Assembly: GCA_949358305.1 (NCBI GenBank)
Contig: OX442314.1
Location: 2,604,001-2,668,000, forward strand
Source: Strigamia acuminata
Taxonomy: Eukaryota
Direction: 5' to 3'
DNA: 64,000 nt
The notes under the pieces were generated by a model. The model was given only the letters and a program-made list of their open reading frames with translations. It ran no database searches and had not been told where the DNA came from. Below are positions 18,823 to 42,798 of the stretch, piece after piece. Positions within the stretch are counted from its first letter, which is position 1; every line of letters begins with the position of its first letter. Both the position numbers and the translations under genes were made by a program.

Positions 18823-18980
18823 GGTGCATTCAATAAGTCTAAAACGTATGCAAAACTCGTTTCGTGTTTGCACCTGACGTCATTCCCATTGAATAACATG
18901 TTATTCAATAGGAATGGGAATGATGTCACGTGCAAACACGAAACGAGTTTTGCATACGTTTTAGACTTATTGAATGCACC
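18823..18980. mobile_element. Palindromic MITE with TA flanks (Tc1/mariner-like)
   Basis: ta|GGTGCATTCAATAAGTCTAAAACG...CGTTTTAGACTTATTGAATGCACC|ta; long near-perfect arms. Confidence 0.8.
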
Positions 18981-24224: not shown

Positions 24225-24244
24225 AAATACCCAACAATTACAAC

Positions 24245-24420
24245 AGCTGTCGCGGGTGAGAATACTATTACTATTCTTAACCGCGACGTCGCTGTTAAGA
24301 ATTAGTTGATCTCATGGTGTCGCGGTTATGAATGCGCGCGATATTCTTATCCGCGAATCGCGTTTATGAATGGACGTGATATTTATAACCACGACGTCGC
24401 GGATAAGAATATCGCGCGTA
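24245..24420. repeat. Cluster of short palindromic repeats, possible DNA-transposon subterminus
   Basis: attcttaaccgcga / tcgcggataagaat units in alternating orientation. Confidence 0.65.
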
Positions 24421-25573
24421 TTATAGAGTCCCATTGATATTGATAACTTCACAGCAAAATCATTATATTTTGCAACTCTTTCTTTGGTTTCTTTTGAATT
24501 TTGATTCTCGTTTTTAACTTAACTAGATAAGCTAACAAAATCTGTTTTTTAATGCAAGCCCTGTTTAATATGTCCGAGTAAGTTTCCATCTTTCTCATGA
24601 TCAGTGTTGACAAGTTCGGAATATATTTTCTTGTCTTTGACGATGATGATGTGGTGGATTCCTCGAAAATGCATGGGAAATGTGAAATTCCACTGCACGG
24701 TCCTTTTCGTACGTACGTTCACGTGTTTGCACCCAATATAGAGGAGAATTTGCAAATTTAATAACTCTTCCTTTTGCAGTTTGCAATATTTTAAAAATAT
24801 TCAAATATTTAAATGTTTAAAAATATTTTAGAATGCTGCTTGTTTACAAAACCGATTTATTCTTGTTAATTTCTTTGTATAACGGATTTGAGCTGGACCT
24901 GGGATCATCCCTTGTCGGGAACTGTGTGGGAGAAGCCGATTTTGTAGAATTTAAAAACAATAATTTGGGTTTGTTTTTATAGCGTTTTGTTTGGTTGCAA
25001 AATCAAGAAATATTTATTTATTTATTTATCTCCAACAATACAATATACAATACAAAATGCAATTTTTATTCAATTTAGAAAGTAAAACATTCTTTCTAAA
25101 AAAATTCTGGTCCAAAATATGCAGTGTTTCAACTGTGTTGCGAGATGAAATATATCAGACACTTCGTCGTCTACATTTATAATACATATATTGTCCATTA
25201 AAGCATCTTTGTGCTAAACAAGAAGAAAAAAATAGAAAAAAACTACAGGTGACCCTCAATCTACAAACATCTTATATATAAATATATAAATATATAAATA
25301 TTACTTTAATTTACTTGGTGGTGCAATTTCTGCTTTTTGCCATTTTAATGTACCCTTTTCAATTTTCACTAAGAACACAGTCGGATCAACAGTTGCTAAT
25401 TCGGCCGGTTGTGGTTTCTGTTTTAAAAAACAAAATCTTATATAATGAAATAATTGAAGGAATTTAATTGATGGGACTTTAGTGAGCAAAGTAGGCTTCA
25501 CTTTGTTCTTCATTTTAGTAGATGCGCCTATCGCCGAATCCCACGTTGGATGGTGATCACAGTGATGATGAAC

Positions 25574-25669
25574 GTGTTGTAGTAAAATATGAGATCTATG
25601 AATACGCATTTAAGATGCAATTCTTCATTTCTACCTCAAGGAGGGATTTAAAGGGATGAAGGAGGAAAT
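25574..25669 (+). repeat. Left TIR (96 bp)
   Basis: Reverse complement of 42703-42798 with one mismatch. Confidence 0.9.
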
Positions 25670-25884
25670 GGCCCGATGGTATGAAGATGGATGAATGAAA
25701 AACAAAGAAAGAAAAGACTCAGATGGATTTCAGGAGCATAAAAAAATGATGCTTACCCTTCAATTTTTAAATAAATAAATAAATAAATTATATTAATTTA
25801 TTTAATTTATAAATAAATAAATAACTAATAAATTATATTAATTTAATTAATTAAAATAAATAACTACAAGTAATTCAATTCATT

Positions 25885-26138
25885 TACAAGTAATTCATTT
25901 ATTTGTAAATATTTAATAAAAAATCTTAAATGTGTAATTCAATTAATTTACAAGTAATTCATTTATTTGTAAATATTTAATAGAAAATGCTAAATGTGTA
26001 ATTCAATTAATTTACAAGTAATTCATTTATTTGTAAATATTTAATAGAAAATGCTAAATGTGTAATTCAATTAATTTACAAGTAATTCATTTATTTGTAA
26101 ATATTTAATAGAAAATGCTAAATGTGTAATTCAATTCA
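25885..26138. repeat. Left subterminal tandem repeat, 62-bp unit, about 4 copies
   Basis: tacaagtaattcatttatttgtaaatatttaatagaaaatgctaaatgtgtaattcaattaatt iterated. Confidence 0.9.
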
Positions 26139-26262
26139 TTAATTAATTAATTAATAAATAAAAAAATTCCTAAAAGTATGTTTCATTCTTAATCAATTTT
26201 CCTTTTTTTTTAAAATTTATTTTTCTTTTATATAAAAAAGAATAATGATTTAGATTCATTCT

Positions 26263-29200
26263 GTGCTCAGAATGAATAGATACAAATTCAGAAAATGTGT
26301 CGAGTTTTTAAAAGGAAAAAGAAAAAGGGGCGATTTATCTAGGGCTTTCAAGTTTAATGTCGGTTTGGATCAACTTTTGAAGAAATGCGGCGAATATAAA
26401 GATTTTGAGAAGATTATCTCAGTTCCGTATTATCTTCATAAAGGTATCTTTAATGGACAATCGCGCGAGTACATGGTCAATTTCGATGAAAGGATTTGTG
26501 AAATAGAAGATGTGATTAAAGATGCCGCTCCAAATATCCGTGCTTTGGTGGCGGAAGTTGCAGCCGACATGAATTCGTGCAAAGTGAGTGTTATGATGCA
26601 ATTGAGATATCGGCATTCCGTGAAATTGTCGCCAGCTCTTTTTTGGTACCGGGCCGGGCCGTTCGTGATGTTAACGGATGATGTTGATCCAATTTTGGAT
26701 TTGGCTGCGAGGCAACTGGCCGAAGAAAGTGCTGAATATGTAGAAACTCACGACTACTTCTGTTTAGTATGTGTAGAGGCTCTTAAAATTGATTTTGATA
26801 TTTTAAAACAGAAAGGTGAATGGGGCAAAGATGCCATCTTCTTTCCATTGGGTTCGAATATTGATTTATCGGCCGTCATTCGCAATAAGAAAGCGGTTTT
26901 GACTTTTAAAATGGATTTGCGAAAGTCTTTTGTTTGGGCCATTCTTGCATCTTTACATCCGGTAGCTATTAATGCCGAACGCATATCTAATTACTTGAAG
27001 TATGAGCACGAATTGAACTTGCAAGGCTTAGAATTTCCGCTGCCTTACAGAAACCTAGAAAAATTCCAGTCGCAGAATCCCGATATCGAAGTAACTATTT
27101 ATTATTGCAATGGCGATCGCGTGGAAAGATACGTTACCGTTCACAGAAACAGGAAACATCACGTAGATCTATTCTTCTACGGAAAGAATAGCTACGGACT
27201 TGTGAGGGATCCAAAACGGTTGCTGGGTTATTTTCCGTGTCACTACTGCGATAACCAATTCAAGAGCTGCGTGGGAAGAGACAAACATGCGTCGATATTC
27301 CACTCCGTTCCCGAAAAATCGTCGTATCAGGAACTGGACGAATGTCTGCAGAAAAAAAAGGCCGTTGTAAATGTCCAGAACTCGGATCAAAAAAGTTTTT
27401 TATGGTCTGTATTAGCTGCCTTGTATCCAGCCCCCGTTCATGTTTGCAGAGCGGATTATTACGAACAGTTTATGAATAAACTCAATCTCGAAGGGCTAGT
27501 TTTTCCCGTGGGGCCGAAAGAAGTGCTTACGTTCGAAAGACAGAATGTAAGTTTGAACATTAATGTATTCGAGTTGCTGCCCAAGTCCCGCATTGTTCCG
27601 ATTAAAGTAGATATTCTGACGAACCGCCTTATCACTATTAACCTACTGAAGAAACAAAATCATTACATGTGGATCAGGGATTTCTCGCGACTCTTGAGCG
27701 CCGGCAATAAACATAAGCGGTATTATTGCATGAACTGTATGAACGGGTTTTCCAGTGCCATAGTGCTCGTTAGGCATAAACGATACTGCGGGAAATATAA
27801 AGCCTGCAGCACTAAATGTCCCGACGAAGGAGCTATCTGTACGTTCAAAAGTGAGAAAAAAAAATATCCTTTACCGTACGTTTGTTACGCCGATTTCGAG
27901 GCATTCTTAGTACCTGATGCGGAGAGCGAACCCACTTTACATTCGATCATCATTAATTCTCACGAGCCGTGCGGTTATTCGTTTAAAGTAGTGTGCACTG
28001 AGAACGAAGCTTATTCCAGACCGTTACAGCTGTATAGAGGTCCGGATGCCGTCGATCATTTTTTGCAATCGTTGCGTGCGGAAATTAAAGCCGTGGTTCA
28101 GCAATTTTCCGAATTGGAACATAAACAATTCAATTCCAAAACGATGACTTCGCTTCAATGGATCGCTTATAGAAATGCAACAACGTGTTACTTATGCGGT
28201 GATGAATTCTTGGAAGAATTAAAAGGCTTGACAAAAGTCTTGGATCATAACCATTTCACCGGGAAGTTTCGTGGGGCCGCACACGCTAATTGTAACCTCA
28301 ACTACCATTGGCGGAAATCTGTGCCTATAATTTTCCATAATGGAAAAAAGTATGATTTTCATCTAATATTGCCGCATTTGACCGTCGCGTCAGAAAAAGT
28401 GACGATGATCGCCGAAAACTCGGAATTATACAAATCGTTCACGTTGAAAATCAAGACCGGTGATGATCCAAAACAGGTCGTAACGTTAAAATTCATGGAT
28501 AGTTTCCAATTTCTCGCGAGCAGTTTATCCAATTTGGCAAAAAATCTAGAGAAGTCGCAGTTCGCTGTCTTTCGAAGCGAGTTTAAAGGCGAGGAAATTG
28601 ATCTTCTGTTGAGGAAAGGAGTGTACCCTTACAGATATATGACCGGTTGGTCAAAATTTCAAGAAGATAAACTTCCGCCGAAAGAAGAATTTGAGAACAT
28701 AACCGACGACGAATACCAATATGCCCAGTTAGTTTGGAAAACGTTCGGAATTAAAAACATGGGCGAATATCACGATTTGTATCTGAAGACCGACACTCTG
28801 TTGTTGGCGGATATATTCGAACAGTTCAGAAAAATGTGTTTAAATCATTACAAGCTAGACCCCTGTCATTACATCACGTTTCCAAGTCTTTCTTGGGACG
28901 CTGCGCTGCTCATCACCGAAGTTAAATTGGAGCTTCTGTCTGATCCAGATATGTACATGTTTGTCGAACAAGGAATAAGAGGCGGTGTTGCCACTATCAG
29001 TCAACGCTACGCCAAAGCCAATAATCCTCTTCTGGCATCGGGATACGATTGCGAGAAACCAGAGAGTTACATCGTCTATTTGGATGCGAATTCCATGTAT
29101 TCCTGGGCAATGAGCAAACCGCTACCAGTTGGCAAGTTTGCCTTCGACGATAATGTAGCCGAATGGTCACAAGAACGGATTTTAAAAATGGGAGAGAACG

Positions 29201-30288
29201 ATACGATGGGATGCATCTTGGAAGTGGATTTGGGATATCCGCAAGAACTGCATTCGTCCCACAATTGTTTGCCTTTGGCTCCGGAAATGATACGTTCTGG
29301 GGATGACACTTCTCCCAGATTAATCCCGCATTTGCAAGCTCGTTGTAATTACATTCTGCATTACAGAGCTCTGCAATTGTACTTGTCCCTGGGCATGACG
29401 TTGATGAAAATAAAAAGAGTGCTGACGTTTGAGCAAAAACCGTGGCTGGCCAAGTATATCAAATTGAATATTGAGAAACGGAAGTCAGCTACCAGTGATT
29501 TTGAGCAGGAATTGGCGAAATTAGCTAACAATTCGGTCTTTGGAAAAACCTTGCAGGACGTGAGGAAATATAGACAATTTTATCTGGTAAACAATGCAAA
29601 AGACTTGAATACTCACGTCAACCACGTCGGTTTCAAAGGAAAAAAAAAATTAAACAAAAAACTGGTGTTGGTTGAACGGCGAAAGCTGGAATTGACGTTA
29701 GACAAACCTATTTACAGCGGTTTAACTATCCTGGACTTGTCTAAATGCTTGCTCTACGACTTTCATTACAACGTCATGAAAAAAAAATTCTCAGACAAGC
29801 TGAGATTGCTGATGACAGATACGGATAGTTTGATGTACGAAATAGAAGCTCCGTCAGTCTACTCGTTCTTCAGAGAAGAAATACCACAAGTGATGGATCT
29901 GTCTAATTACCACCCACCCGATGGCAGAAACAGGCGTGTCATAGGATGCTTCAAAGACGAGACTGCCGGCGAGCCGATAGAAGAGTTTGTAGGGCTAAGA
30001 GCCAAATGTTACGCTTATAACGTGAACGGGAAAACGAACATGCGATGTAAAGGCATAAAGAAGGCTGTCGTGGAGCAAGAGCTGGACTTGGAGGCGTACA
30101 AGAAGATATTGTTCGGTGAACGGGAGGCCCACAGATTGAAATTTGAAACGATCAAATCAAAACTGCACGATCTCACAACGGTCAAGGTGGACAAATTGGC
30201 ATTGTCGGCGAAAGACAAGAAACGAGTGATATTAGATGATTGTATTCATACTTTGGCTTATGGATACGTAAGCTTGGCGGAGGATTAA
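26263..30288 (+). CDS. pPolB: Protein-primed family B DNA polymerase with duplicated vOTU-like/zinc-finger module and EndoVII-like insert (first ATG 26272)
   Basis: YADFE, FHNGKKYD, DSFQFL, YLKTD, YLDANSMY, KLANNSVFGK, TDTDS; TATA-like tatataaaaa near 26230. Confidence 0.97.
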   Translation: MLRMNRYKFRKCVEFLKGKRKRGDLSRAFKFNVGLDQLLKKCGEYKDFEKIISVPYYLHKGIFNGQSREYMVNFDERICEIEDVIKDAAPNIRALVAEVAADMNSCKVSVMMQLRYRHSVKLSPALFWYRAGPFVMLTDDVDPILDLAARQLAEESAEYVETHDYFCLVCVEALKIDFDILKQKGEWGKDAIFFPLGSNIDLSAVIRNKKAVLTFKMDLRKSFVWAILASLHPVAINAERISNYLKYEHELNLQGLEFPLPYRNLEKFQSQNPDIEVTIYYCNGDRVERYVTVHRNRKHHVDLFFYGKNSYGLVRDPKRLLGYFPCHYCDNQFKSCVGRDKHASIFHSVPEKSSYQELDECLQKKKAVVNVQNSDQKSFLWSVLAALYPAPVHVCRADYYEQFMNKLNLEGLVFPVGPKEVLTFERQNVSLNINVFELLPKSRIVPIKVDILTNRLITINLLKKQNHYMWIRDFSRLLSAGNKHKRYYCMNCMNGFSSAIVLVRHKRYCGKYKACSTKCPDEGAICTFKSEKKKYPLPYVCYADFEAFLVPDAESEPTLHSIIINSHEPCGYSFKVVCTENEAYSRPLQLYRGPDAVDHFLQSLRAEIKAVVQQFSELEHKQFNSKTMTSLQWIAYRNATTCYLCGDEFLEELKGLTKVLDHNHFTGKFRGAAHANCNLNYHWRKSVPIIFHNGKKYDFHLILPHLTVASEKVTMIAENSELYKSFTLKIKTGDDPKQVVTLKFMDSFQFLASSLSNLAKNLEKSQFAVFRSEFKGEEIDLLLRKGVYPYRYMTGWSKFQEDKLPPKEEFENITDDEYQYAQLVWKTFGIKNMGEYHDLYLKTDTLLLADIFEQFRKMCLNHYKLDPCHYITFPSLSWDAALLITEVKLELLSDPDMYMFVEQGIRGGVATISQRYAKANNPLLASGYDCEKPESYIVYLDANSMYSWAMSKPLPVGKFAFDDNVAEWSQERILKMGENDTMGCILEVDLGYPQELHSSHNCLPLAPEMIRSGDDTSPRLIPHLQARCNYILHYRALQLYLSLGMTLMKIKRVLTFEQKPWLAKYIKLNIEKRKSATSDFEQELAKLANNSVFGKTLQDVRKYRQFYLVNNAKDLNTHVNHVGFKGKKKLNKKLVLVERRKLELTLDKPIYSGLTILDLSKCLLYDFHYNVMKKKFSDKLRLLMTDTDSLMYEIEAPSVYSFFREEIPQVMDLSNYHPPDGRNRRVIGCFKDETAGEPIEEFVGLRAKCYAYNVNGKTNMRCKGIKKAVVEQELDLEAYKKILFGEREAHRLKFETIKSKLHDLTTVKVDKLALSAKDKKRVILDDCIHTLAYGYVSLAED

Positions 30289-30304
30289 TATGACGATGGT
30301 TAGT

Positions 30305-31945
30305 TTAATCGTCCCATTTACTACGATCGAATCTGCAATACACGAGGGCGTAAACTTTTATTTCCGGACTCCAATCGGTGACAGTAGATATTCTAATGTG
30401 ATCGTTATCATCAAAATCTACTTTTTTCTCTAAATTGTACGTTCTAAAACATACCGGCATTTTACGTGGTGTTTTTGTAACATCTGTACGTGGAATATGG
30501 AACGTTCGACCATGCCCGTTAATAGACAAGATAAACTCAAACTCGTTAGGTATTACTGTGTATTCTGCTGTAGTAGCATACATGAATAAACTGATTCGCG
30601 TTATATGCCCGTAATGAGGAGTATAAAACTTCCCATTATGTGCAAATAATTTCCATTCTTCGGACACCTTCAAAAACCAATCGGTCCGTTGCGAATGTAG
30701 GAACCCTAGCACTAAATCGGCCTGTTCTTCTACTTCGGGAATATTTAGATTTGATATTTTGTCTTCTAATTCCGTCAATTTCTTATTAACTTCTATTTTG
30801 TTCGCTTCGATGTTAGAATTTAACGTGGCTTCTACCGTATCGACAGTGCCGGCCAAAGCAGCGGGAGCAAAACTTGATTCGTCAACGCTCGGAATTGCGC
30901 TAATTTTTGATATTTCTTCTTGAACGGATGTCAAAATGGACAACATGTTTTCCTGCAACGTTATTATTTGTTCGTTGGCTAATTTGATTTTATCGGTAAC
31001 CTCGTTGACGCTCGTTTGCATTTTATCTGACTTTACGGAATTTTCGTCTACGTACTCGTTTAATTTAAGTTTAGTCTCGTCCAGATCTTTTTGAATGGCA
31101 GTACTGACTGTGTCTAGCTCCGCTTTCGCCGCTTCAATTTTGGTTTTTAAGTCTTCCGTACTTTCGCTACTAACACCAAATTTTGCGGGTAAAGCTTTGA
31201 TTTTGGTTTCCAAGGCTTTAACCTCATTTTCCACACTTTTTTCTAACTTTTTTATATCATCCTGTGCTTGTTTTATCTTGTCATTTGATGCCTCGATGTT
31301 GGTTCTGATTTTGTCCACGTCTAAGTTCTGGATTTTGGTTTCTACTTCATCCAATGCTTCGTTTATTTTTGTATCATAATCGGTTTTATTCTGGATTAAG
31401 CTATTAGTCAACGTCTCCAACCCAGTCTTTAAATCTTCGATCGCAGATTCCAACTCGGATTTAACGTCATTTATCAAGTCTTTGATTTTGATTTCTAATG
31501 CGCTTATTTGTTTTTCGTCAACTTCTACACCACCGGAAGCAGTCGCATTATCTACTAATATCTTAATGTTCGCTTCTAATTCTTTAATTTTCTTAATCAA
31601 ATCTTGTTCCAACGTTCCATATTTTATAGTAGCATAGGCAATATCATTTTTGAGTTTATCAATATCCTTCGTATCAATTCCTTCGCCTTGCCCCGTTAGC
31701 TTACTAGCTTGATCTTGTACGGTACGTTTTAATGCGTTCAAATCGTTAATTATAGAATCGCAAGCAGCTTTCAGGGCATTTTTAGTCTTTGTGATCTCGT
31801 CAAAAATTTTTTTTTCTAGATCGGATAATGCATCGTAACCAACGTGATCTGCGAGAACCTCATCTACTTCTCGACGTTGACGTTTGCCCAATTTATGCAC
31901 TGCGTTAAGACGATAATCGTCTCCTAGTTTATTTACGCTTACCAT
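30305..31945 (-). CDS. Coiled-coil protein with globular C-terminus, putative fibre/spike
   Basis: About 400 aa heptad-rich stalk plus about 130 aa aromatic, beta-like head; last gene of the structural cassette. Confidence 0.55.
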   Translation of the reverse strand: MVSVNKLGDDYRLNAVHKLGKRQRREVDEVLADHVGYDALSDLEKKIFDEITKTKNALKAACDSIINDLNALKRTVQDQASKLTGQGEGIDTKDIDKLKNDIAYATIKYGTLEQDLIKKIKELEANIKILVDNATASGGVEVDEKQISALEIKIKDLINDVKSELESAIEDLKTGLETLTNSLIQNKTDYDTKINEALDEVETKIQNLDVDKIRTNIEASNDKIKQAQDDIKKLEKSVENEVKALETKIKALPAKFGVSSESTEDLKTKIEAAKAELDTVSTAIQKDLDETKLKLNEYVDENSVKSDKMQTSVNEVTDKIKLANEQIITLQENMLSILTSVQEEISKISAIPSVDESSFAPAALAGTVDTVEATLNSNIEANKIEVNKKLTELEDKISNLNIPEVEEQADLVLGFLHSQRTDWFLKVSEEWKLFAHNGKFYTPHYGHITRISLFMYATTAEYTVIPNEFEFILSINGHGRTFHIPRTDVTKTPRKMPVCFRTYNLEKKVDFDDNDHIRISTVTDWSPEIKVYALVYCRFDRSKWDD

Positions 31946-31979
31946 TTTTTTAATAGAAGGGAAAAAAACTATTTTTTAA

Positions 31980-32339
31980 TTATTTTTTTTCTTCTTTCCT
32001 CCATTTTTTTAAAACATATAAGCACAAATGGCCGCAAGTAATTTCGTCAAAATTTTGATACTGATTGTAATTGTATTTTATGTTGTCTCCCAGATAATCG
32101 TATAATTCCAACGGGGGTGGCAAGTCTCCGAAACTATCGAAGTACAGCTTCTTATTTCCAATTTTACTGTATGCCACCCAATGACTTCCGCTTTCGTGGT
32201 GCGTGTTCAAATTAACAATTCCACATTCTTTCGATCGTGGTTTGACGGGTAAAGTATCTCTCGAAAACACTCCTCTAAAAAATGAAATTTTCATTCGTCT
32301 GGCCAGTTCCTCCAACTGCAACGAATCTAGCGGTTTTAT
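31980..32339 (-). CDS. Adenain-like cysteine protease 1 (no ATG at the expected start)
   Basis: FRGVFSRD, VNLN..GSHWV, YFDSFG, Q..CGHLC; frame extends upstream as IKPLDSLQLEE. Confidence 0.9.
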   Translation of the reverse strand: MKPLDSLQLEELARRMKISFFRGVFSRDTLPVKPRSKECGIVNLNTHHESGSHWVAYSKIGNKKLYFDSFGDLPPPLELYDYLGDNIKYNYNQYQNFDEITCGHLCLYVLKKWRKEEKK

Positions 32340-32803
32340 TTTTTTGTCACCAGTGAGCCGTAAGGTTTCAAGTAAAAACCTTTTCCAGACTTGCGTTTCC
32401 GCGATTTTTTTTTTGCGAATTGCATTCCTTTACCTTCTGAAACTGCATTATGACGTTTTGTCTCATCGAGCATTCTCTTGTTGGTTTTTGCCTCATCGAC
32501 AGCTTTGGCAATTCCTGCCGCACCGCCAGCGAGACCGCCTAAAGCCCCCAATAGTGGAAGTAATAAAGGGAAAAATCCGCCAGATTGTTTAATTTGATTC
32601 GAAGGTATACTCAAAGTCATGCCTTTCTTTTTAGAACCGGCTTTTTTGATCTTGTTTATTTGTCTATCCGTAAGAGACAAGCCATGATTGCCGTTTAATT
32701 GTTCGTATTTCAATCTTAAATGCAAGGGTATCTTTTTTTTGACAGACTTGGATATTTTTCGTTGTTGATTCGGAGATAGATTCACTTTATGTATCTTATA
32801 CAT
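32336..32803 (-). CDS. Basic core protein with Gly-rich hydrophobic, possibly membrane-active segment
   Basis: Lys-rich; QSGGFFPLLLPLLGALGGLAGGAAGIAKAV..ETKRHN as seen in Polinton core proteins. Confidence 0.75.
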   Translation of the reverse strand: MYKIHKVNLSPNQQRKISKSVKKKIPLHLRLKYEQLNGNHGLSLTDRQINKIKKAGSKKKGMTLSIPSNQIKQSGGFFPLLLPLLGALGGLAGGAAGIAKAVDEAKTNKRMLDETKRHNAVSEGKGMQFAKKKSRKRKSGKGFYLKPYGSLVTKK

Positions 32804-32809
32804 TTTTAT

Positions 32810-32970
32810 TTCTTTTTTTATATACGTATATATTATTTTATATATATTTATTTATATATATTATATATTATATATTATATATATTATATATATATTATAT
32901 ATATATATATATTATATATATATTATATATTATATATATTTATATATATTTTATATACGTATATATTATT
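32810..32970. repeat. Degenerate (TA)n microsatellite
   Basis: Almost pure A/T alternation. Confidence 0.9.
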
Positions 32971-32977
32971 TTAAAAT

Positions 32978-34297
32978 CTAATATAATACTTCGATTTTAC
33001 CCTTGTCTAATTTCATAGTCATTAGTCTATCGCTTATTATCAAAGCGTAGGCTTTAGTGTCGGCAGGAACGGTTTCCGCAAATTTCATTTTTATTTGCAC
33101 GTCCATTATTCCGGTTTTCATTCTTTCGCTTTGTTTCGTGCAATCTATTACGATGAGCGGGTATATATTTCCGTACTCGTAAGTATTAAACGGTAAATCG
33201 TCGGCACCGTAATAGTCTTTTCTAAATTGAATGCAACTTTCTAAGAATTTACAGAAATTGGCTTTCTTAAAATCATTGTTACTGTCCAGATAAGGATATC
33301 GTTCCGAATTTAAGTAGGCATGAACTTCCGTTACATTGCAGTTATCAAATGTGGCTGGATTTTTTAATTGGTCGTCTCTTTTATTCGTTTGTAAAGCCAC
33401 GATGATGTAACGTGGTTTTTCTGACGTGCTGGTTGTTACCACTCTCCACGCGTGTTCCTTACTTTGTGGCACGTCTGTCATTTCGAACGACCAATGTCGA
33501 AAAGCTAATGGAACGTTCACCCCTCTATCTATGGCAGTGAGTAATCTATTCTTTTGGATATCGGACGGTAAGACGTGCGGCATCAACCAATATAACTGTT
33601 CGATGATAATTTTTCCAACGGGGGTGTTTACTTTTGGGGCGGGACCGGACTGTATCGCTTTAAAAATGGCATCGTTGTCGTGAGTTCGCATTAAGGTCAA
33701 AACTTGTTTGGCACCATATATGATTTTCGTATAGTCTTCGAAAAATCCCATTAAATGTGTTAACGGTACTAACAAAGAGAACGATCCTTTGGGCGTTGGC
33801 ATTATGTTGTAAAATATTCTACGTTCTAGAAAAGCGGGATTAAGAGTATCCGATGCTTCGCCCTTGTGATGATCTACTATCCATCCCATATTTCCGCTCG
33901 AATTTTGGAGCTGTTTGTACGTTAGTAAGCCCTTAATAGTGGTAGCATAACCCGGATAATTTATTTCGTCTATTAATTTATCACCTATGTGATATTTCAT
34001 GTTGCTGAACAAAAATGGCATAAAGTTATTTCCTAACGTTATTATATGGTCTTGTTCATCAGCTTGAGCGATAAGGTCTGTACCATCCGCTTTCACTAAT
34101 CTTCCTGTTATGCAGACGTAACTTTTATGAGGGTGAGTCCATACATCTTCGTTTTGAATGATTAATCGAATTTCGGAATTCACATTATTTAAATTAGTTC
34201 CTATAATAGGATAATATTCGTGGTAGTTGTAGGCATTAACAGATTCATCGACGACGAATGGTTGTTCGACATCCAAATAATTCTCGGAGACTTGCAT
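32978..34297 (-). CDS. Double jelly-roll major capsid protein
   Basis: 439 aa; THPHKSY, LMGFFEDYTKII, EKPRYIIVALQT, LNSERYPY, PLIVIDCTKQ. Confidence 0.92.
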   Translation of the reverse strand: MQVSENYLDVEQPFVVDESVNAYNYHEYYPIIGTNLNNVNSEIRLIIQNEDVWTHPHKSYVCITGRLVKADGTDLIAQADEQDHIITLGNNFMPFLFSNMKYHIGDKLIDEINYPGYATTIKGLLTYKQLQNSSGNMGWIVDHHKGEASDTLNPAFLERRIFYNIMPTPKGSFSLLVPLTHLMGFFEDYTKIIYGAKQVLTLMRTHDNDAIFKAIQSGPAPKVNTPVGKIIIEQLYWLMPHVLPSDIQKNRLLTAIDRGVNVPLAFRHWSFEMTDVPQSKEHAWRVVTTSTSEKPRYIIVALQTNKRDDQLKNPATFDNCNVTEVHAYLNSERYPYLDSNNDFKKANFCKFLESCIQFRKDYYGADDLPFNTYEYGNIYPLIVIDCTKQSERMKTGIMDVQIKMKFAETVPADTKAYALIISDRLMTMKLDKGKIEVLY

Positions 34298-34309
34298 CGT
34301 CGCTATTTT

Positions 34310-34512
34310 TTAATTACTTAATATATATATATTTTTTAAAAAGAATTACTTAATTAATTACTTAATATATATATTTTTTTAAAAAGAATTACTTAATTAA
34401 TTACTTAATATATATATATTTTTTAAAAGAGAATTACTTAATTAATTACTTAATATATATTTTTTTTAAAAAGAATTACGGTATTTAATTAATTACTTAA
34501 TATATATTTTTT
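34310..34512. repeat. About 42-bp AT-rich tandem repeat upstream of the MCP gene
   Basis: taattaattacttaatatatatattttttaaaaagaattac, about 5 copies. Confidence 0.88.
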
Positions 34513-34674
34513 TTAAAAAGAATTTATATATTCTCGATTATCTGGCCGTATCGAAGACTTTATAATTTTTATATTTCCACCTCTAATCGACGAGGGTGTC
34601 TTGACAGTGGCAGTGTTGGAGCTGGTGCTGGGGGTATTACTTGCCGTTACGTTCTTATTAAAAATTAACGGCAT
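34513..34674 (-). CDS. Small 53-aa ORF between penton and MCP (not in ORF track)
   Basis: aaaaacATG context; MPLIFNKN...SIRGGNIKIIKSSIRPDNREYINSF*; begins 10 nt after the penton stop. Confidence 0.55.
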   Translation of the reverse strand: MPLIFNKNVTASNTPSTSSNTATVKTPSSIRGGNIKIIKSSIRPDNREYINSF

Positions 34675-34684
34675 GTTTTTTTAA

Positions 34685-35455
34685 TTACGCTTTAATTAAT
34701 TTTCGTAAGTGTAAACGTGTAGTAAAAATTTCTCCTCTCAGATTCAGTGGTTTATCGTCTTGATCGGTCAACCAGATCCTGACTTCGTGTATTTTAGATT
34801 GATTTTTCACCGGCAAGTAAACTATGTTATACGGCATTTCTACTATTTTGAAGCCTGGCGGGACATTAGGAAAAAATGCGTATATGATCGGAGCCGTCTT
34901 CCCGTTTTTATAAGAGTCGGTAATAAGATCACAATGGACCAGGATAGTGTTAATGTGAAAAATGTTCACCGGATTAATGGATTCGCTTCTACCTACACCG
35001 TATTTCTTTGTTTTGAGACCGAATAATTTAGCCATACTTCTATTTTCCGAAAAATTGGCCCCGTAACTGGCATCGCTAATCACTAATGTCGTGGACAGAG
35101 TATTATAATTGGCCACGATGTCGATGAAAGGTGCGTCGTCTTTCATATTCCAGTGTCCTCTGGATTTCATTTCGGTATGTATGTACGAGATAATGTCGGC
35201 AAGTTCGTAACAACCCACGGGAACGATGATGTCGTAGTTGAGCGTACCTATAATACGAGCGGGGACGTTCACATCTACTTCAACAGTGTAGTATTTGAAC
35301 ACGTTGTTGTCCTCGGTTATATTTGGCATTGTGTAAAATGTCTCGAGGCTCACTAATCCCAATTCGTATTCGTCGTCACCCAAAATTAAAGGTGAGCTAA
35401 AAGTAGTGAGGAAATCCGATTTCGTACTGCTTAGTACGATAGACATGGTAATCAC
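34685..35455 (-). CDS. Minor capsid protein (penton)
   Basis: YELGLVSL, PNITEDNN, VPVGCYE, INTILVHCDLITDSY, PPGFKIVE, DQDDKPLNLRGE. Confidence 0.9.
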   Translation of the reverse strand: MITMSIVLSSTKSDFLTTFSSPLILGDDEYELGLVSLETFYTMPNITEDNNVFKYYTVEVDVNVPARIIGTLNYDIIVPVGCYELADIISYIHTEMKSRGHWNMKDDAPFIDIVANYNTLSTTLVISDASYGANFSENRSMAKLFGLKTKKYGVGRSESINPVNIFHINTILVHCDLITDSYKNGKTAPIIYAFFPNVPPGFKIVEMPYNIVYLPVKNQSKIHEVRIWLTDQDDKPLNLRGEIFTTRLHLRKLIKA

Positions 35456-35473
35456 GATTATTATTACTTTTTT

Positions 35474-36697
35474 TTAATTCGCGAGAATTTTCTTTCGCAT
35501 GTTTTCAAACTTGGTTTTATCGAGGATTCTTTCCTCTTTCAGTTCCATAAGTATTTCCACAATTTCGTTGTCGTGAGACTGGTTTCCAGCATCCCGTGAT
35601 GCATGCAACAATCGCAGCCTGTCTATTAATTCGTCCGGGTTATTGTAATACTTGTAGTCTACGGAGTTGTGCGGCCGAAACGTTTTCGTGACACCTTTGC
35701 CAGCTTGGGGTGTGTTCTTGCCAGCTTGGGATGTTGTCTTTGGACGATTTTTATACAGTTCCCAAATTCGTTTAACCACTGTCATATACTTTTCTCCTTT
35801 ACTAGACTTTGGCATATTAGTTGCCGAATTGTTCTTTTTAAATAACCCTTGACTAGAAATGAGAATCCTGCCGTAATCCACAAAATTTTGGTCTGTCATA
35901 GTTCCTTCAATCGGTGGAAGTTTTTGCATGAGGAGATGCATTAATGTTGGAGTTCGTGGATACTTTACGTTTTTCACAAGTATATGAGTTGGAAAGAATT
36001 TAACTTCTTCGACTCCTATTTTAAATTTTGAATCATACGGGTCATATCTAATTCCAAACACCGTATCTAAATGAGCCGCATTTTCGGCGTAATATTTCAA
36101 GAACTCTTGCTGTACTGCGTTTTCCGATTCTTTGTCCGTCATTTTTAATTCGAGACTTTTTCTTATGTCGCGTTGATATTTTATATTTGGAAGCACATGA
36201 GCAAATTGCCAATCATCATCATCAACATCATCTTCTACGAGGCTCGTCTCTCCCTCTCTTTGAAATGAAACATTTTCCTCTTCATTCCCATCATCCCGGC
36301 CAAACTTAAGTCGAGGAGTTTCAATTTTACTCGAGGACAAGCTTTGGCGACTGAACTGCCTTTTTAAGGATGAACTTTCCCAAGGTAAGAGCGGTGATTC
36401 TAGATCCATTTCGTACTTTAAATTATGGGACTTACTTGTAATGGGTGTGAAAGATGACAACTCTCTTTTAATGGGAGTGGAAGGTGAGGATTTGAAAGTC
36501 GTAGGTGGTAGAGCAAGGGGTGGAGATAGTTGCTGCTGCTGCTGCGGCAGGCTATGCAATGCAGCAGTTACAGGTTTGAAGAATGCACCGAGCGCTTCAT
36601 CTTCGGATCCTCTGTTTAACTTATCTTGCAGAAACTTTTTTTTCAAGCTCTGTTTTAATTTCTCGTAATTTCCACGCTGCTGTTTATTCATGTTCAT
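35474..36697 (-). CDS. Conserved Polinton protein (PZ-like)
   Basis: FKPVT, DTVFGIR, C-terminal YYNNPDELIDRLRLLHASRDAGNQSHDNEIVEILMEL. Confidence 0.75.
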   Translation of the reverse strand: MNMNKQQRGNYEKLKQSLKKKFLQDKLNRGSEDEALGAFFKPVTAALHSLPQQQQQLSPPLALPPTTFKSSPSTPIKRELSSFTPITSKSHNLKYEMDLESPLLPWESSSLKRQFSRQSLSSSKIETPRLKFGRDDGNEEENVSFQREGETSLVEDDVDDDDWQFAHVLPNIKYQRDIRKSLELKMTDKESENAVQQEFLKYYAENAAHLDTVFGIRYDPYDSKFKIGVEEVKFFPTHILVKNVKYPRTPTLMHLLMQKLPPIEGTMTDQNFVDYGRILISSQGLFKKNNSATNMPKSSKGEKYMTVVKRIWELYKNRPKTTSQAGKNTPQAGKGVTKTFRPHNSVDYKYYNNPDELIDRLRLLHASRDAGNQSHDNEIVEILMELKEERILDKTKFENMRKKILAN

Positions 36698-37361
36698 TTT
36701 TTAAAAATGGGGAAAATTTATTTTTATATCTCCCGCTCGACATAGACTTGGTCTTGTCAATGGTGAGAAAGCCAAACGTATCATCATCCCAACACGACTT
36801 ACACATGTCTCTGAATCGAACGTACGTCATGTCCGTTCCAACATGGTTGTCAAAAACGTGTTTCATGTTTCTTTCGTCTTGTCTGAACATGATTATTAAA
36901 TTGGCATTGTCTCTTATCACCTGTTTTGGGATTCGGCTATAAGTCTGACACAAGTAAAAAGAGTCTACGTTACTATGACGGCCCTGGGCAAAATATTTCT
37001 CAATATTATGTTGCTTGTCGGTCATCACATCATCAAACACAAAAATAGACTTGTTCACGGATTTATCAAAAAGTTGTTCGGGAGACGGCACATCCTCGTT
37101 GCTCGGGAAGAAATGAGCTACCTGTTTGCCCAATTCCGATTCTAGATCCTCGAACAACTCTCTTAACCGCTCGTATTTTGGTTGAAATAAAGTTTTAGAA
37201 AACACCATCAGCTTGTCGAACCGTAGCCAATGCAGGAAGTTTAGCAACAGATTCGTTTTCCCACATTCAGCCGGGCCACACATGATGCATCTTATGTTTT
37301 TTGGCAGAATCGACTTATCACATTTATCCAAACGCCCCGTGTCAAAATTTATGACATTCAT
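36684..37361 (-). CDS. A32/FtsK-like packaging ATPase
   Basis: Walker A GPAECGKT, Walker B FVFDD, GRH, IRDNAN. Confidence 0.93.
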   Translation of the reverse strand: MNVINFDTGRLDKCDKSILPKNIRCIMCGPAECGKTNLLLNFLHWLRFDKLMVFSKTLFQPKYERLRELFEDLESELGKQVAHFFPSNEDVPSPEQLFDKSVNKSIFVFDDVMTDKQHNIEKYFAQGRHSNVDSFYLCQTYSRIPKQVIRDNANLIIMFRQDERNMKHVFDNHVGTDMTYVRFRDMCKSCWDDDTFGFLTIDKTKSMSSGRYKNKFSPFLKNEHE

Positions 37362-37397
37362 TTTTTATATTCCCGTAATAAAAAAAAGAAGACAAAC

Positions 37398-37562
37398 ATG
37401 TTTTGCGTTAAATGTAAAAAGTCTACTCCTACCGGCACGTTGGAAATGGGAGTCACTAAAAACAACAGAGCCTACAAAAGAGGTAAATGCTTGGCATGCG
37501 GGACCTTGAAATATCAGTTCATAAAAAAAAAAAATCTCCAGCAACCGGAAAAGGACTTTTGA
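37398..37562 (+). CDS. 54-aa zinc-ribbon protein, DUF5679-like (not in ORF track)
   Basis: MFCVKCKK...KNNR..RGKCLACGTLKYQFI; caaacATG context. Confidence 0.75.
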   Translation: MFCVKCKKSTPTGTLEMGVTKNNRAYKRGKCLACGTLKYQFIKKKNLQQPEKDF

Positions 37563-37891
37563 ATAAACTAATCAATAAATTACCGGTAGAAATGCATATC
37601 CCTGGGTACAATTATTGCGGTCCAGGCACAAAATTAGATAAGCGTTTAGCTAGAGGTGATAAAGGCATAAACCCATTGGATGAAGCGTGCAAGCTGCACG
37701 ACATTGCTTACATAAATGAGAACTTAGAAGCCAGACACGAAGCAGACAGAAAGTTGGTCGAAGCATGTGTTTTAATCATCTCCGATCCAACAGTCAGTTT
37801 AAGCACAAAATTAGCCGCCAAAGCAATCAAAGCAACGTTCAATACCAAACTTAAACTGGGAATGGGACTAAAAAAAAAAAAAAATGCCTGA
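37520..37891 (+). CDS. Parvovirus VP1u-type phospholipase A2 domain protein
   Basis: PGYNYCGPGT calcium loop and NPLDEACKLHDIAY catalytic HD. Confidence 0.9.
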   Translation, partial: HKKKKSPATGKGLLNKLINKLPVEMHIPGYNYCGPGTKLDKRLARGDKGINPLDEACKLHDIAYINENLEARHEADRKLVEACVLIISDPTVSLSTKLAAKAIKATFNTKLKLGMGLKKKKNA

Positions 37892-38837
37892 CATAGAACA
37901 ACTGGTATCTGAATTACATAAGCCGGCACGTAGGCATTACGTCAGACGTCCGGTCGTATCTTTTGCAATCAACGACTTATGGCAGATCGATTTAGTCGAA
38001 TTGATACCTTTTTCCCGTGTAAACAAAGGTTATAAATACTTATTAACGGTTATAGATGCGTTCTCTAAATATGCGTATGCGGTTCCCATCAAATCAAAGA
38101 CTGGCAAAGAGGTAACCGCTGCATTTGAAAAGGTGCTTGTCAAAGCGGGGAATAAGGGGCCGGTCAACATGGCATCCGATTGGGGGAAAGAATTCTACAA
38201 TTCCCATTTCAAGGCACTGGTCAAAAAGTTCAACATCAACCATTTTTCCACACACTCGCCGTTGAAAGCGAGCATGGTCGAGCGGTTCAATCGCACGCTC
38301 AAAGAGCGCATGTACAGGCATTTTACTTTGAAAGGTTCGAGGAATTGGATTACTATCTTACCCCAATTGATGACCCGTTATAACTCTTCGGTTCACCGTA
38401 CGACCAACATGAAACCCAAAGATGTGGCTCCCAAACATGAAAAGGCGCTCAGACTAAAATTACTTCCCGAACCAGCAACGTCCAAGCCTAAATTCAAAGT
38501 GGGCGACCGAGTGCGTATTTCCAAATCCAAATCCATATTTGACAAAGGGTTTTTGCAAAATTGGACTAATGAAATCTTTACAATTGATAAAGTGGACACG
38601 ACGTATGAACCTCCAATTTTCAAATTGAAAGACAGTTTGGGAGAATCGATCGAAGGTTCCTTTTACCGTGAAGAACTCCAAAAAACTGAAACCAGGGTAG
38701 ATGATCCCTACTTGATCGAGAAAGTCATTAGAAAAAAGAAAAACAGCGATGGATCATGGAAGTACCTAGTGAAATGGGTCGGCTACGATCAGAAGCATAA
38801 TTCATGGGTGGATGATCTCATCGACATTAAAAAATGA
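37884..38837 (+). CDS. Retroviral-type integrase with C-terminal chromo-like domain
   Basis: WQIDLV, IDAFSKY, SDWGKEF, VERFNRTLK; IEKVI..YLVKWVGY..NSWV. Confidence 0.96.
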   Translation: MPDIEQLVSELHKPARRHYVRRPVVSFAINDLWQIDLVELIPFSRVNKGYKYLLTVIDAFSKYAYAVPIKSKTGKEVTAAFEKVLVKAGNKGPVNMASDWGKEFYNSHFKALVKKFNINHFSTHSPLKASMVERFNRTLKERMYRHFTLKGSRNWITILPQLMTRYNSSVHRTTNMKPKDVAPKHEKALRLKLLPEPATSKPKFKVGDRVRISKSKSIFDKGFLQNWTNEIFTIDKVDTTYEPPIFKLKDSLGESIEGSFYREELQKTETRVDDPYLIEKVIRKKKNSDGSWKYLVKWVGYDQKHNSWVDDLIDIKK

Positions 38838-39253
38838 ATAACGTGGAAATTTACAACTGGGCGAAGAATAAACTACGTATCGCTCACTTCAACAACGTGT
38901 TGCCCATCGATTGCTTGAAACCGCTCGCGAATCACCGGGGCAAGAATGAAAGCTTCGTCATCAATTTAGACCCATCGACGGGTGGTGGTACCCATTGGGT
39001 CAGCTTGTATCTTTGCAATGACAGAGGCATATACTTTGATAATTTGGGAAACGTTCCACCTAAAGAGATCATTGATTTTGTCGGAAGAGACGTTACCCTA
39101 GATTATGCTACAAAAGAAATGTATTCGTTGACAAAAGAAGATTCTTGCGGGATGTTTTGCCTCTTTGCGCTCTATTTAGCAGCCAATCTTAATCTCAGGC
39201 AGAATACAATCATTAAAATCATTCGAGGAATGAATAATCTTGAGTTGTTGTAA
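38834..39253 (+). CDS. Adenain-like cysteine protease 2
   Basis: INLD..GGTHWV, YFDNLG..PP, CGMFC; ATGA overlap with the integrase stop. Confidence 0.85.
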   Translation: MNNVEIYNWAKNKLRIAHFNNVLPIDCLKPLANHRGKNESFVINLDPSTGGGTHWVSLYLCNDRGIYFDNLGNVPPKEIIDFVGRDVTLDYATKEMYSLTKEDSCGMFCLFALYLAANLNLRQNTIIKIIRGMNNLELL

Positions 39254-39485
39254 AGTAAACCCAATTTCCATTTTTCTCAAAAAAATGAAATTATTTAAGA
39301 AGTTAAAACAATCCTAATTTGAAATCAACAAAGATTCGCACAAAACCTTGCGGAAAGTCTGCAAACAAGCACGGGCATGTGTTAAAGTCCGTGTCAAATC
39401 AAAAATGAAACCGTAACAAAAATTTTCTATATATAAAAAAGCAACATTATTATATTCACTTCAATTTGAGAAAGAAAAGAATTAA

Positions 39486-39767
39486 ATGTATCTCTTTCAA
39501 CTCCAACAGAACAAAACTACCGATGAAAAGAAAATAATTTTGAAACATTTATCCTTATTTTTATTGGTCCATTATGGTGGCTCAATAGATCAGAGAACCG
39601 ATTCGTTACTTTTGTGGCGACCGGCATTTCAGATCAAGATTCAAACTCTGGTGGAGAAACTTGGAAGATTTTCCAGTGAGAATATTGAACACGTCAAATA
39701 CGTACACGACAATGTAACTATCGCCGAAATCCAGGAATTGGCTGAAATAAGTCATTTATTCGGCTAA
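39486..39767 (+). CDS. Hypothetical 93-aa Polinton accessory protein
   Basis: ATG ORF with tatataaaaa box about 55 nt upstream. Confidence 0.55.
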   Translation: MYLFQLQQNKTTDEKKIILKHLSLFLLVHYGGSIDQRTDSLLLWRPAFQIKIQTLVEKLGRFSSENIEHVKYVHDNVTIAEIQELAEISHLFG

Positions 39768-40166
39768 ATGCTACTCTATATATATAATGCGGCATTATGT
39801 AATTAATTATCACAAGTTTTTAAAATAATATTTATATTGTTAATTTTACTGTTTTTTCTCTGAATAAGGAAATAGTCTTTTGATTAATTGGGTGTAATTA
39901 CAAATTATATTTCACATATTAAATCTGGAAATAAAAATGAATATGTGAATAAACACCTGATTTAATTCAAAACACGTGACCATGTAATTATATTAAAGCA
40001 GCGTGACTCATCCGGCAAATGCATAATAAATAAATAAATTTTAAAAAATATAAATAAAATTGCTTTTAAATAAATTTTCAATTAAAAATAAATTAAAAAT
40101 ATAGTATGTAAACATCATTTTAATTAAATTTTCAATTAAAAATAAATTATTTCTCAGCTGAATAAC

Positions 40167-40457
40167 ATGGAATTTTTTTGTGCAACTTATGAAAAAAGTG
40201 AGAAAATATTACTGCAAATAATCTTTGAACTTATAAGTAGATGGGGGGCTGAAATTACAGATATAAATAATTTTGCATTTGTATTTCGCATTGATGGACA
40301 ATTTCCTGAACTAAGCAAAATAATAAAAAGAGCAAGAATAATACATGATTCTCTCAACTCAGAAACAAGAGTACACATAAGGCAGTTGTATCAAATTATT
40401 CCGGGCAAGAAAATTAAGGATATAGATTTTTTTGATGAAGAGAATGAATGTTTATAA
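40167..40457 (+). CDS. Hypothetical 96-aa Polinton accessory protein
   Basis: aacATGG context; open frame within very AT-rich flanks. Confidence 0.55.
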   Translation: MEFFCATYEKSEKILLQIIFELISRWGAEITDINNFAFVFRIDGQFPELSKIIKRARIIHDSLNSETRVHIRQLYQIIPGKKIKDIDFFDEENECL

Positions 40458-40460
40458 AAA

Positions 40461-40637
40461 ATGGAGTTTTATGAACATACTAGAGCATTCTTACGCCATT
40501 CATTTAACAGTGTCTTGTTTAATTGTGACGTATGTAATCATTGCAGTGCCCCCTGTTCTGCTAACTCGTTTGTCAATGTAAAAAAAAATTTTGAAAAACA
40601 AATAAAATGTGTAAAAGAATTTTTAATTAAAAGCTGA
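40461..40637 (+). CDS. Hypothetical 58-aa Cys-rich protein
   Basis: aaaATGG 3 nt after previous stop; CDVCNHCSAPC; AATAAA overlaps the stop. Confidence 0.45.
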   Translation: MEFYEHTRAFLRHSFNSVLFNCDVCNHCSAPCSANSFVNVKKNFEKQIKCVKEFLIKS

Positions 40638-41414
40638 ATAAAATTATTTTTCTTTACAATTTATTATTCATTTATTTCTGATTGAGTCACTTTGAAAACC
40701 TGTTTTTCTGACTCATTAAAAAAAAATCTCTAAAGGCTATTTTTGTTTTTAAAGAGCAAAAGCCTTCGGGGGGGGGGAAATTTAATTGCTGGTGAGGAAA
40801 AAAATATTTTCATTCGACTGTTTAACATTTTTTTTTTGTTTTTTTTTGTTTTGATAAATGTTTATCAATTTGTTTGTTTGATCACATATCCGTTTTTCCT
40901 ACAAGATATATTACATGCTGTCACATGGCTTACTTTTAACACAGCTGGTTTTGGAAAGTTCCATTACTTAGAAGGAATAAAATTTTCATTTGTAAATGAA
41001 AATTATTAATTATAAAAGTTAAAATGGAATTAAAAAGAATCAAATGAGAATTCATTTGATTTTTTCTAATGGATAGTTTTAATTCTAATTCCATTTCATT
41101 TTTAAATTGGTTTAATAAATTCCAACTTTAATATCTATTAACAAATAAAAACTTTCTTTCAATTAACTTTTTCTTATTTAAAAATAAGTTTTATTTTTTT
41201 TTGTAAATAGAATTAAAATAAGGAATTAATAACAACACACAGGACAAAAAAATCAAACGAATTCTCATTTTAAATTGTGTTAATACATTTCAACTCTTTT
41301 GCAATTAAACTGGTCTTTCAACTAGGTCACATTTCATTTGTGAATAAAAAAAATTTCCCCAGGGGCAATTGAATTTTTATTTAAAATGAAATTGTTTTTA
41401 GGTCAAATAAAGAT

Positions 41415-41614
41415 AATTCAATTTATTTGCAGATAAATGTATTAAGATTTTTTAATAAAAAAGTCAATTGAAATGTTTAATAGGAAATGTAAAAATTCTT
41501 AATACATTTATTTGTAAATGAAATGAATTAGACATTTTACATTTCCTATTAAACATTTCAATTGACTTTTTTATTAAAAAATCTTAATACATTTATTTAC
41601 AAATGAATTGAATT
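41415..41614. repeat. Inverted repeat with about 80-bp arms and 40-bp spacer
   Basis: 41415-41494 complementary to 41535-41614. Confidence 0.85.
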
Positions 41615-41684
41615 TTAATTAAAATAAGAAATAATTGCAAATATAAATACATGAAATAAGAAATAAGTACAAATATAAATATAG

Positions 41685-42270
41685 AAGCTTGTGGAACTTA
41701 GTCAAAATATCGAACCAAGCGTGATGGACATAGCCGGAATATCAAACCAAGCTTGTGGAACTTAGTCAAAATATCGAACCAAGCGTGATGGACATAGTCA
41801 AAATATCAAACCAAGCTTGTGGAACATAGCCGAAATATCAAACCAAGCTTGTGGCACATAGTCAAAATATCAAACCAAGCTTGTGGAACATAGCCGAAAT
41901 ATCAAACCAAGCTTGTGGAACATAGCCGAAATATCAAACCAAGCTTGTGGAACATAGCCGACAGTGCTGGACTGGCCCGGCGGGCTACCGGGAGTTTCCC
42001 GGTGGCCCGTGGCCGCTGTGGCCTGTCGCGGCCCGCTGTAGCCTGTCCCGCCTTCATTATTTGTGGCCCGGACACCCAGATTTCCCGGCCATAAATTTGA
42101 TCCCAGTCCAGCCCTGATAGCCGAAATATCAAACCAAGCTTGTGGAACATAGTCAAAATATCACCAACGAAGCGTGTTGGACATAGCCAAATTTCACCAA
42201 CAAAGCGTGTTGGACATAGCCAAAATTTCACCAATGAAGCGTGTTGGACATAGCCAAAATTTCACCAAGT
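41685..42270. repeat. Right subterminal minisatellite, 32-bp unit drifting to 29-30 bp
   Basis: aagcttgtggaacatagccgaaatatcaaacc iterated. Confidence 0.92.
41962..42116. mobile_element. 155-bp hAT-type MITE
   Basis: 14-bp TIRs CAGTGCTGGACTGG / CCAGTCCAGCCCTG; perfect 8-bp TSD ATAGCCGA. Confidence 0.92.
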
Positions 42271-42702
42271 GCAGATTCAACATGTGATCAAACACCCTGA
42301 CCCATACGTGCAATATAGCATTCGACTCACCATCTCGAGACAAACCGTTTAAAATTACCCCCACTTTTAATTTTGCCGTAACCCCCACTTCCAATACCCT
42401 CAGAAAACTTTAAACAATGGCAAATGTTGCCCACTGTCATTGGAAGTCCATACGATTTACCCCCACTTTCACTTTAATTACCTCCCACTTTCCTAAAAAT
42501 GGTTAATATGTGTGATTTTGCCAACAAAGTACATGTAAACAAATCACGTCATTTATTCATTTTCCCTCCAGTAAAATGAAACGTTCCAAAAAAACCAGTT
42601 GTGATAGAAGCAGGTGAAGTCAATGACCTACTTCCTTTTAAAACTCTTTAATTCAAACAGCAGAATAATTTAATGCACTTTCCCATGGCCTTGCCTCGGG
42701 TG

Positions 42703-42798
42703 ATTTCCTCCTTCATCCCTTTAAATCCCTCCTTGAGGTAGAAATCAAGAATTGCATCTTAAATGCGTATTCATAGATCTCATATTTTACTACAACAC
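42703..42798 (-). repeat. Right TIR (96 bp)
   Basis: Reverse complement of 25574-25669. Confidence 0.9.

Follow-up and report, generated by a model that had tools for sequence, protein, structure and literature searches.

In the window analysed here, a 64,000-nt stretch of contig OX442314.1 from Strigamia acuminata, a Polinton/Maverick element encodes a DNA polymerase (pPolB) with two tandem vOTU-zinc-finger units, and in both of them Ser stands in the place of the catalytic Cys. Our favoured reading, held with moderate confidence, is that these are retained pseudo-proteases that do not cut, and that release of the terminal protein (TP) is done elsewhere or not at all. We are more confident that both units are non-catalytic and kept by selection, and put forward only tentatively the part of the explanation in which they would tether a primer that stays uncleaved. 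The first-pass annotation had proposed pseudo-proteases after nucleophile loss in an intact ORF, with Ser in both copies and the His lost in copy 1, and this proposal survives. Two observations go beyond it: as read from sequences, several other elements related to this one also show doubling with Ser, and the TP domain has lost its predicted priming Ser.

The polymerase is 1338 aa long from its first ATG and 1344 aa from stop to stop, and reads as a TP-like domain, two vOTU-plus-zinc-finger units, exonuclease and polymerase. The ORF is intact, as first reported, although not at the 1341 aa then given. The units (aa ~195-344 and ~350-506) lie in frame and share 29% identity across 150 aa (E 6e-19). 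Both copies are matched by a profile built from the units of relatives (i-E 3.9e-20 and 2e-27), so the similarity is not due to chance. The tandem arrangement therefore stands, with one correction: unit 2 had been started at 27348, whereas its frame begins at 27349.

Alignment places both Ser residues, first noticed as SF for CF, in the catalytic Cys column, and the middle residue of NSY (27187, copy 1) and NHY (27658, copy 2) in the catalytic His column. The two Ser codons are as originally read (Table 1). In terms of active OTU enzymes, the Cys expected on helix 1 is Ser219 or Ser375, and the His expected on strand 4 is His464 in copy 2 and Ser307 in copy 1. Copy 2 keeps N367, N370, D372, F376, H464 and Y465, and its near-invariant active-site motif columns differ at the nucleophile only. 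Copy 1 lacks the conserved N-x-x-N-x-x-D ahead of the nucleophile.

Pfam and PDB sequence searches detected the zinc finger alone and not the vOTU, and the identity of the units comes from predicted structure. AlphaFold models have a mean pLDDT of 81.6 (the model including TP and copy 1) and 91.6 (copy 2). Copy 1 matches CCHFV OTU (Z 6.2, rmsd 4.4, 107 aligned), the best among ~20 OTU rows; copy 2 matches OTUD1 (Z 7.4, rmsd 3.4, 104 aligned), and every one of the 26 rows reaching Z 5 is an OTU entry. The Z scores are middling and the consistency of the matches carries the case, but the models predict an OTU fold for both copies, in line with the first assignment. The pairing of an N-terminal OTU-like domain with pfam03175, by which alpha adintovirus PolB is defined in PMC8502044, is present in the protein.

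Ser at this position is rare among relatives, and its being common in the clade had been named beforehand as a result that would speak against the pseudo-protease reading. Among the best 120 of 5519 matches to the polymerase region (41-48% identity), the nucleophile column is Cys in 107 of the 107 proteins covering it and the His column is His in all 109; 113 carry one vOTU unit, seven carry none and none carries two. All 21 aligned rows from viral and metagenome loci likewise have Cys. The related-locus scan found no close relative of the element in viral contigs, and metagenome contigs gave two single-unit Cys elements. No full-length protein matched the two-unit region in a word-based search.

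Table 1. Features of the Polinton in the window (positions are those of the window)
Feature	Position	Strand	Basis or remark
pPolB ORF	26272..30288	+	PF03175, E 4e-28; DFE, YLDANS, DTDS motifs
TP-like (D1) domain, PAD/little-finger fold, aa ~57-177	26440..26802	+	profile and fold match; strongly diverged
Predicted priming loop T-H-D-Y-F, aa 159-163	26746..26760	+	replaces GSGW-type loop; between the domain's last helix and last strand
TP-vOTU1 linker	26803..26853	+	~12-aa insertion; pLDDT under 50 at aa 181-194
vOTU copy 1, aa 195-317	26854..27222	+	Ser219 in nucleophile column, Ser307 in His column
Ser219 codon TCT	26926..26928	+	sequence
Zinc finger 1, C2H2 type (C323, C326, H339, H344)	27238..27303	+	sequence; last ligand Cys in relatives
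vOTU copy 2, aa 350-475	27319..27696	+	Ser375 in nucleophile column
Ser375 codon AGT	27394..27396	+	sequence
Zinc finger 2 (C486, C489, H502, C506)	27727..27789	+	sequence
Adenain/Ulp1-like protease 1	31980..32294	-	His, Asp and Cys kept, as is the Gln ahead of Cys
Double-jelly-roll (DJR) major capsid protein	32978..34297	-	PF21738, E 3e-64
A32-like packaging ATPase	36684..37361	-	PF04665
Phospholipase A2-like protein	37487..37891	+	PF08398
rve integrase with chromodomain	37884..38837	+	PF00665, PF00385
Second adenain/Ulp1-like protease	38834..39253	+	directly 3' of integrase; His, Asp, Cys present; Gln column Ser

The element spans ~17.2 kb (25574..42798) between TIRs at 25574-25676 and 42696-42798 that are 97% identical over 103 nt, consistent with the TIR-bounded 15-20 kb expected of a Polinton. 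The Polinton gene set of pPolB, rve integrase, A32 ATPase, adenain-like protease and DJR capsid is complete, and these genes, the phospholipase A2-like gene and the second adenain-like gene are all uninterrupted. Polintons have a 6-bp target-site duplication; no direct repeat was found at the element's ends, and on the right side the flank consists of a tandem repeat adjoining an N gap. The two adenain-like proteases are 30% identical; in 10 viral loci that gave a match, all of them partial, only one such gene was found per locus. The first ATG of protease 1 (31980-32420, minus strand) excludes a conserved N-terminal helix encoded in frame upstream, overlapping the neighbouring ORF, which suggests splicing or a non-ATG start. 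A 546-aa long coiled-coil protein of no clear family (30305-31945, minus strand) is possibly a fibre or envelope protein.

Inside the right end lies a long, near-perfect hairpin (41415-41614; -74 kcal/mol, z -18), followed by 32-bp tandem repeats (41621-42004). Within the window, one 14-nt AT-rich motif occurs only in this hairpin (twice, 41421-41519) and in left-hand 64-bp tandem repeats (four times, 25897-26102), and may mark origin or promoter sites. The left end of the Polinton breaks the last of several repeated exon-like blocks (16513-16938, 17805-17986, 25149-25576) in host sequence at 14886-25576. Elsewhere in the flanks are LTR retrotransposon pol ORFs (649-4800 and 49597-54388, the latter bounded by 171-nt repeats that are identical), together with an ORF of 929 aa at 6220-9009 without a Pfam match. 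The LTR elements and the N gap by themselves point to a eukaryotic and probably an animal assembly.

The domain ahead of the vOTU units is strongly altered as well. It is the sole significant match to a TP profile among the 479 ORFs of the window (i-E 2.6e-4), and the same search found no separate TP gene. Its model resembles Pol eta (Z 9.3, rmsd 3.0, 110 aligned), in the PAD/little finger of Y-family polymerases, and has the four-stranded PAD-like alpha/beta fold of PRD1-like TP (D1) domains; a fold of this type is described for Polinton terminal proteins (PMC11161782). Its score is 21.9 bits, compared to a 5th percentile of 48.7 among relatives, a comparison that is partly circular as the profile was trained on them. 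In the priming-Ser column, 225 other proteins have Ser (221), Thr (3) or Ala (1), and Asp161 is found only in the window protein. Tyr162 adjoins it and Thr159 lies two residues before; the linking residue in the TP loop is given as Ser or Tyr in PMC11161782. One related locus (L009, upstream of 5674) has Ala in this column with Tyr beside it, and a single vOTU with intact Cys.

The TP domain may be dead as a primer too, with TP and protease supplied in trans by Cys-bearing Polintons of the same genome or with priming from a hairpin. The low score and missing priming Ser, the lack of a separate TP gene among the window ORFs and the hairpin near the right end all fit. Counter to this, the PAD fold is predicted with good confidence, Tyr and Thr are present in the loop, the viral genes are all intact, and the hairpin lies ~1.2 kb inside the element end. 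We consider this explanation unlikely.

The junction between TP and vOTU also differs with the state of the nucleophile. Cys units are preceded by a linker of the form P-[LI]-[RK]-G-S-S-Y, which we take to resemble the ubiquitin C-terminus. Its Gly is present before 150 of 181 Cys units versus 3 of 10 Ser units. Inner Ser units, copy 2 included, lack the Gly linker, and copy 1 has a shortened P-L-G-S after the 12-aa insertion. From these sequences, loss of the linker before inner Ser units may reflect either selection or the duplication boundary.

Doubling of the unit is not confined to Strigamia. The two-unit region was used as query against 1.84 billion representatives; of its 4424 matches, the best 150 were examined. 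Across 281 proteins with the column covered, the window protein included, 251 have a single Cys unit, 19 a single Ser unit (mostly one cluster of decayed fragments) and one a single Arg unit; the others are Cys+Cys (1), Cys+Ser (6), Ser+Ser (2) and three Ser (1). After 70% dereplication and addition of viral loci (196 proteins), Ser is present in 5 of 6 multi-unit versus 3 of 190 single-unit proteins, an association that a Fisher p of 1e-7 overstates because the Ser-bearing two-unit query favours such matches and the rows are related. Without the window protein the count is 4 of 5 multi-unit proteins, and the copies of the exception (Cys+Cys) are 97% identical.

In two of these proteins, P0272 (the Nilaparvata lugens LOC120355032 family, annotated as uncharacterized) and P0238, the TP retains GSGW, the TP-adjacent unit has Cys, His and the Gly linker but lacks a zinc finger, and Ser is found in the inner unit. 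Their copies are 59-66% identical, and the two units of each protein pair together in the tree (99/92 and 99/95), which on these sequences means that either the duplications were separate or gene conversion has acted. P0140 carries three units, all Ser with His, in an ORF without TP on a 2.8-kb contig. The nearest relative of copy 1 is P0121 (153 aa; 44% identity, support 100/94), which lacks both Cys and His. With the catalytic columns masked, a tree of 48 units selected from 183 requires at least seven Cys/Ser changes. Non-Cys units have Ser in all but one case. In the dereplicated set, the His is kept in all 178 Cys units covering its column and lost in three of nine Ser units, as expected if the latter are dead enzymes. 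P0122 and P0125 differ at the nucleophile residue, so Ser also arises in decayed copies. Units with Ser occur outside polymerases in P0121, P0273 and P0153, the last two being, respectively, a 691-aa low-complexity protein with two units and a protein with one unit between zinc fingers and an ATPase-like region; domestication or accessory genes are possible.

Whether the two Ser residues of the window protein arose separately, as first proposed from their codons, is less clear-cut. The free tree puts the two copies apart, but a clade of both with P0121 is not rejected (p-AU 0.51), and the tree constrained to hold the copies together scored slightly higher. With copies only ~28% identical, the TCN/AGY difference could post-date a single ancestral Ser. 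Two independent changes (TCT versus AGT) remain plausible and would fit the Cys+Ser intermediates.

Sister copies bear on whether Ser is fixed. The element and copies 80-100% alike were found in four runs (contig sets) from three studies, and contigs from three of the runs are identical to the window across the copy 2 Ser codon. At that codon the sole listed variant is a synonymous third-position change, and over the surrounding 111 bases 9 of 11 differences are synonymous versus 20-31% expected (P under 0.001), in contigs that lose rare variants and leave out copies under 80% alike, so that rarer Cys sisters are possible. Since Ser varies only synonymously there, copy 2 is not a case of private decay, which bears out the check on sister copies suggested at the outset. 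Among 40 of the 494 differences, none falls in the copy 1 Ser codon; synonymous changes are 4 of 13 in copy 1, near neutral, versus 7 of 11 in copy 2, and the other 9 of 13 in copy 1 alter the amino acid. From these counts copy 1 may be less constrained and drifting. Joints that skip part of copy 1 were each seen in single contigs and were left out of account. No RNA data set was listed as carrying the element.

The main rival to retained pseudo-proteases is that copy 2 is an active OTU with a serine nucleophile (Asp372/Ser375/His464), processing the polyprotein or ubiquitin chains, with copy 1 as a dead accessory. It is the main rival because D372 and H464 are kept and because the activity of Drosophila Otu is disputed. 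The nucleophile is the sole near-invariant active-site column changed in copy 2, Ser is fixed there in sister copies, non-Cys units are nearly always Ser, and all three units of P0140 combine Ser with His. Drosophila Otu (D37/S40/H143) was active in vitro according to one group, as cited in PMC12012553. Against this, PMC4654579 reports the enzyme as inactive, and S40 could be dispensed with in vivo (PMC4654579; PMC12012553). Several Ser units but none of the Cys units have lost the His, and copy 2 has no preceding Gly linker and lies away from the TP. Ser is in general also a fold-preserving substitution. We give an active copy 2 a low probability.

Both units could instead be ubiquitin-binding decoys that trap substrates to counter host defence and have no part in replication, which on the sequences we find slightly less probable still. 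Repeated tandem multiplication would suit avid binding of chains, related Ser units occur outside polymerases (P0121 and P0273), and viral OTUs oppose antiviral defences (PMC11161782); yet CG3251, which also bears Ser, showed no binding of ubiquitin chains (PMC4654579). A decoy role is compatible with the preferred explanation as an added role. Neutral decay or assembly error in one dead copy is very improbable: both Ser codons are one base from a Cys codon and decayed Ser alleles exist elsewhere, but three runs' contigs match the window at the copy 2 codon, diverged sisters keep Ser, the ORFs are all intact and synonymous changes are in excess around the site, so that for copy 2 this explanation is largely refuted.

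Under the preferred reading of retained pseudo-proteases, the protease unit would have been duplicated in an ancestor. Only the TP-adjacent copy would be needed to cut the TP junction, leaving the inner copy free to relax to Ser, the substitution that would best preserve the fold; the resulting Cys+Ser state is present in two other lineages. In the lineage of the window element the outer copy would then have lost its Cys and His and so been disarmed, while the TP loop was remodelled, and the dead pair may be retained to act as tether and binding surface linking priming domain and polymerase. Priming may have moved to Tyr162 (or Thr159), judging by position and analogy. The TP may stay attached during synthesis, as proposed for bidnaviruses. 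Alternatively, it may be removed by the second adenain-like protease or by a host enzyme, candidates being a 5'-tyrosyl phosphodiesterase or a flap nuclease. The role of one such enzyme, TDP2, in HBV is reportedly an open question. The polymerase's first 900 aa contain no match to the adenovirus-type protease site pattern, and the second-adenain idea thus lacks sequence support. The Tyr that L009 has in the column of Tyr162, together with an intact Cys, is a point against Tyr priming. Also to be set against a non-catalytic reading are Asp372 and His464 in copy 2 and the His kept in 3 of 3 Ser units of P0140. Arguing for it, dead vOTUs are described as never lost in adenovirids and bidnavirids, where they are thought structural (PMC11161782), and in vitro no activity was seen for Drosophila Otu or CG3251, both of which bear Ser (PMC4654579).

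The closest known system is the Polinton/Alpha-adintovirus pPolB, TP-vOTU-EXO-PALM (PMC11161782; PMC8502044), which shares the domain order, folds, PF03175 and full gene set. It has one vOTU-zinc-finger unit, whereas the window protein has two, a TP loop without Ser, and two adenain-like genes in its element; and the vOTU Cys and His described as conserved in polintons (PMC11161782) contrast with the lack of a catalytic Cys in either unit. Cutting of TP from the Polinton polymerase by the vOTU is itself a proposal resting on modelling, and TP removal in integrating Polintons is called unclear (PMC11161782). Bidnavirid pPolB resembles the window protein in its fused TP and inactivated vOTU, and that polymerase is thought to stay on the DNA (PMC11161782). 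Bidnavirids, however, have one vOTU and unrelated capsids, whereas the window element combines a DJR capsid with an integrase and must therefore have its 5' protein removed for integration. Adenovirids likewise keep an inactivated, probably structural vOTU, with a proteolytically processed pTP (PMC11161782), but their TP is a separate gene. In the insect OTUD4 family (Drosophila Otu and CG3251), repeated duplication, Cys-to-Ser change, kept Asp and His and disputed activity are all described (PMC4654579; PMC12012553); these are cellular whole-gene duplications, unlike tandem domains within a viral polymerase. Nearest in form are P0272 and P0238, Polinton pPolBs with tandem vOTUs and an inner Ser copy, which differ in the Cys/His of the outer copy, the GSGW of the TP and a first unit without a zinc finger. 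In literature that largely excludes subscription journals, we found no Polinton polymerase described with a vOTU that is duplicated or carries Ser, and the recurrent pattern is apparently not in print. The string 'duplicat' occurs 0 times in the available main text of PMC11161782, whose supplementary alignment figures may hold such cases.

It is possible, although we think it doubtful, that the lineage gave up vOTU self-processing altogether, with the whole polymerase of this integrating virus tethered via Tyr to the genome end, the twin dead units as spacer, and a host enzyme or a second adenain dedicated to the task taking off the 5' protein, or else that copy 2 and the Ser-His units of P0140 represent natural OTU proteases with a serine nucleophile. 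The natural series of one Cys unit, Cys+Ser, Ser+Ser and three Ser amounts to a comparative experiment, which would say that the activity of the TP-adjacent copy is the one that matters and which makes the conserved P-[LI]-[RK]-G/S-S-Y linker a candidate cut site. Whether a serine OTU can be catalytic is disputed, and these proteins offer compact Ser-His-Asp OTU domains with which to address it. The window element itself is intact, present in multiple copies, and seems to manage without vOTU activity.
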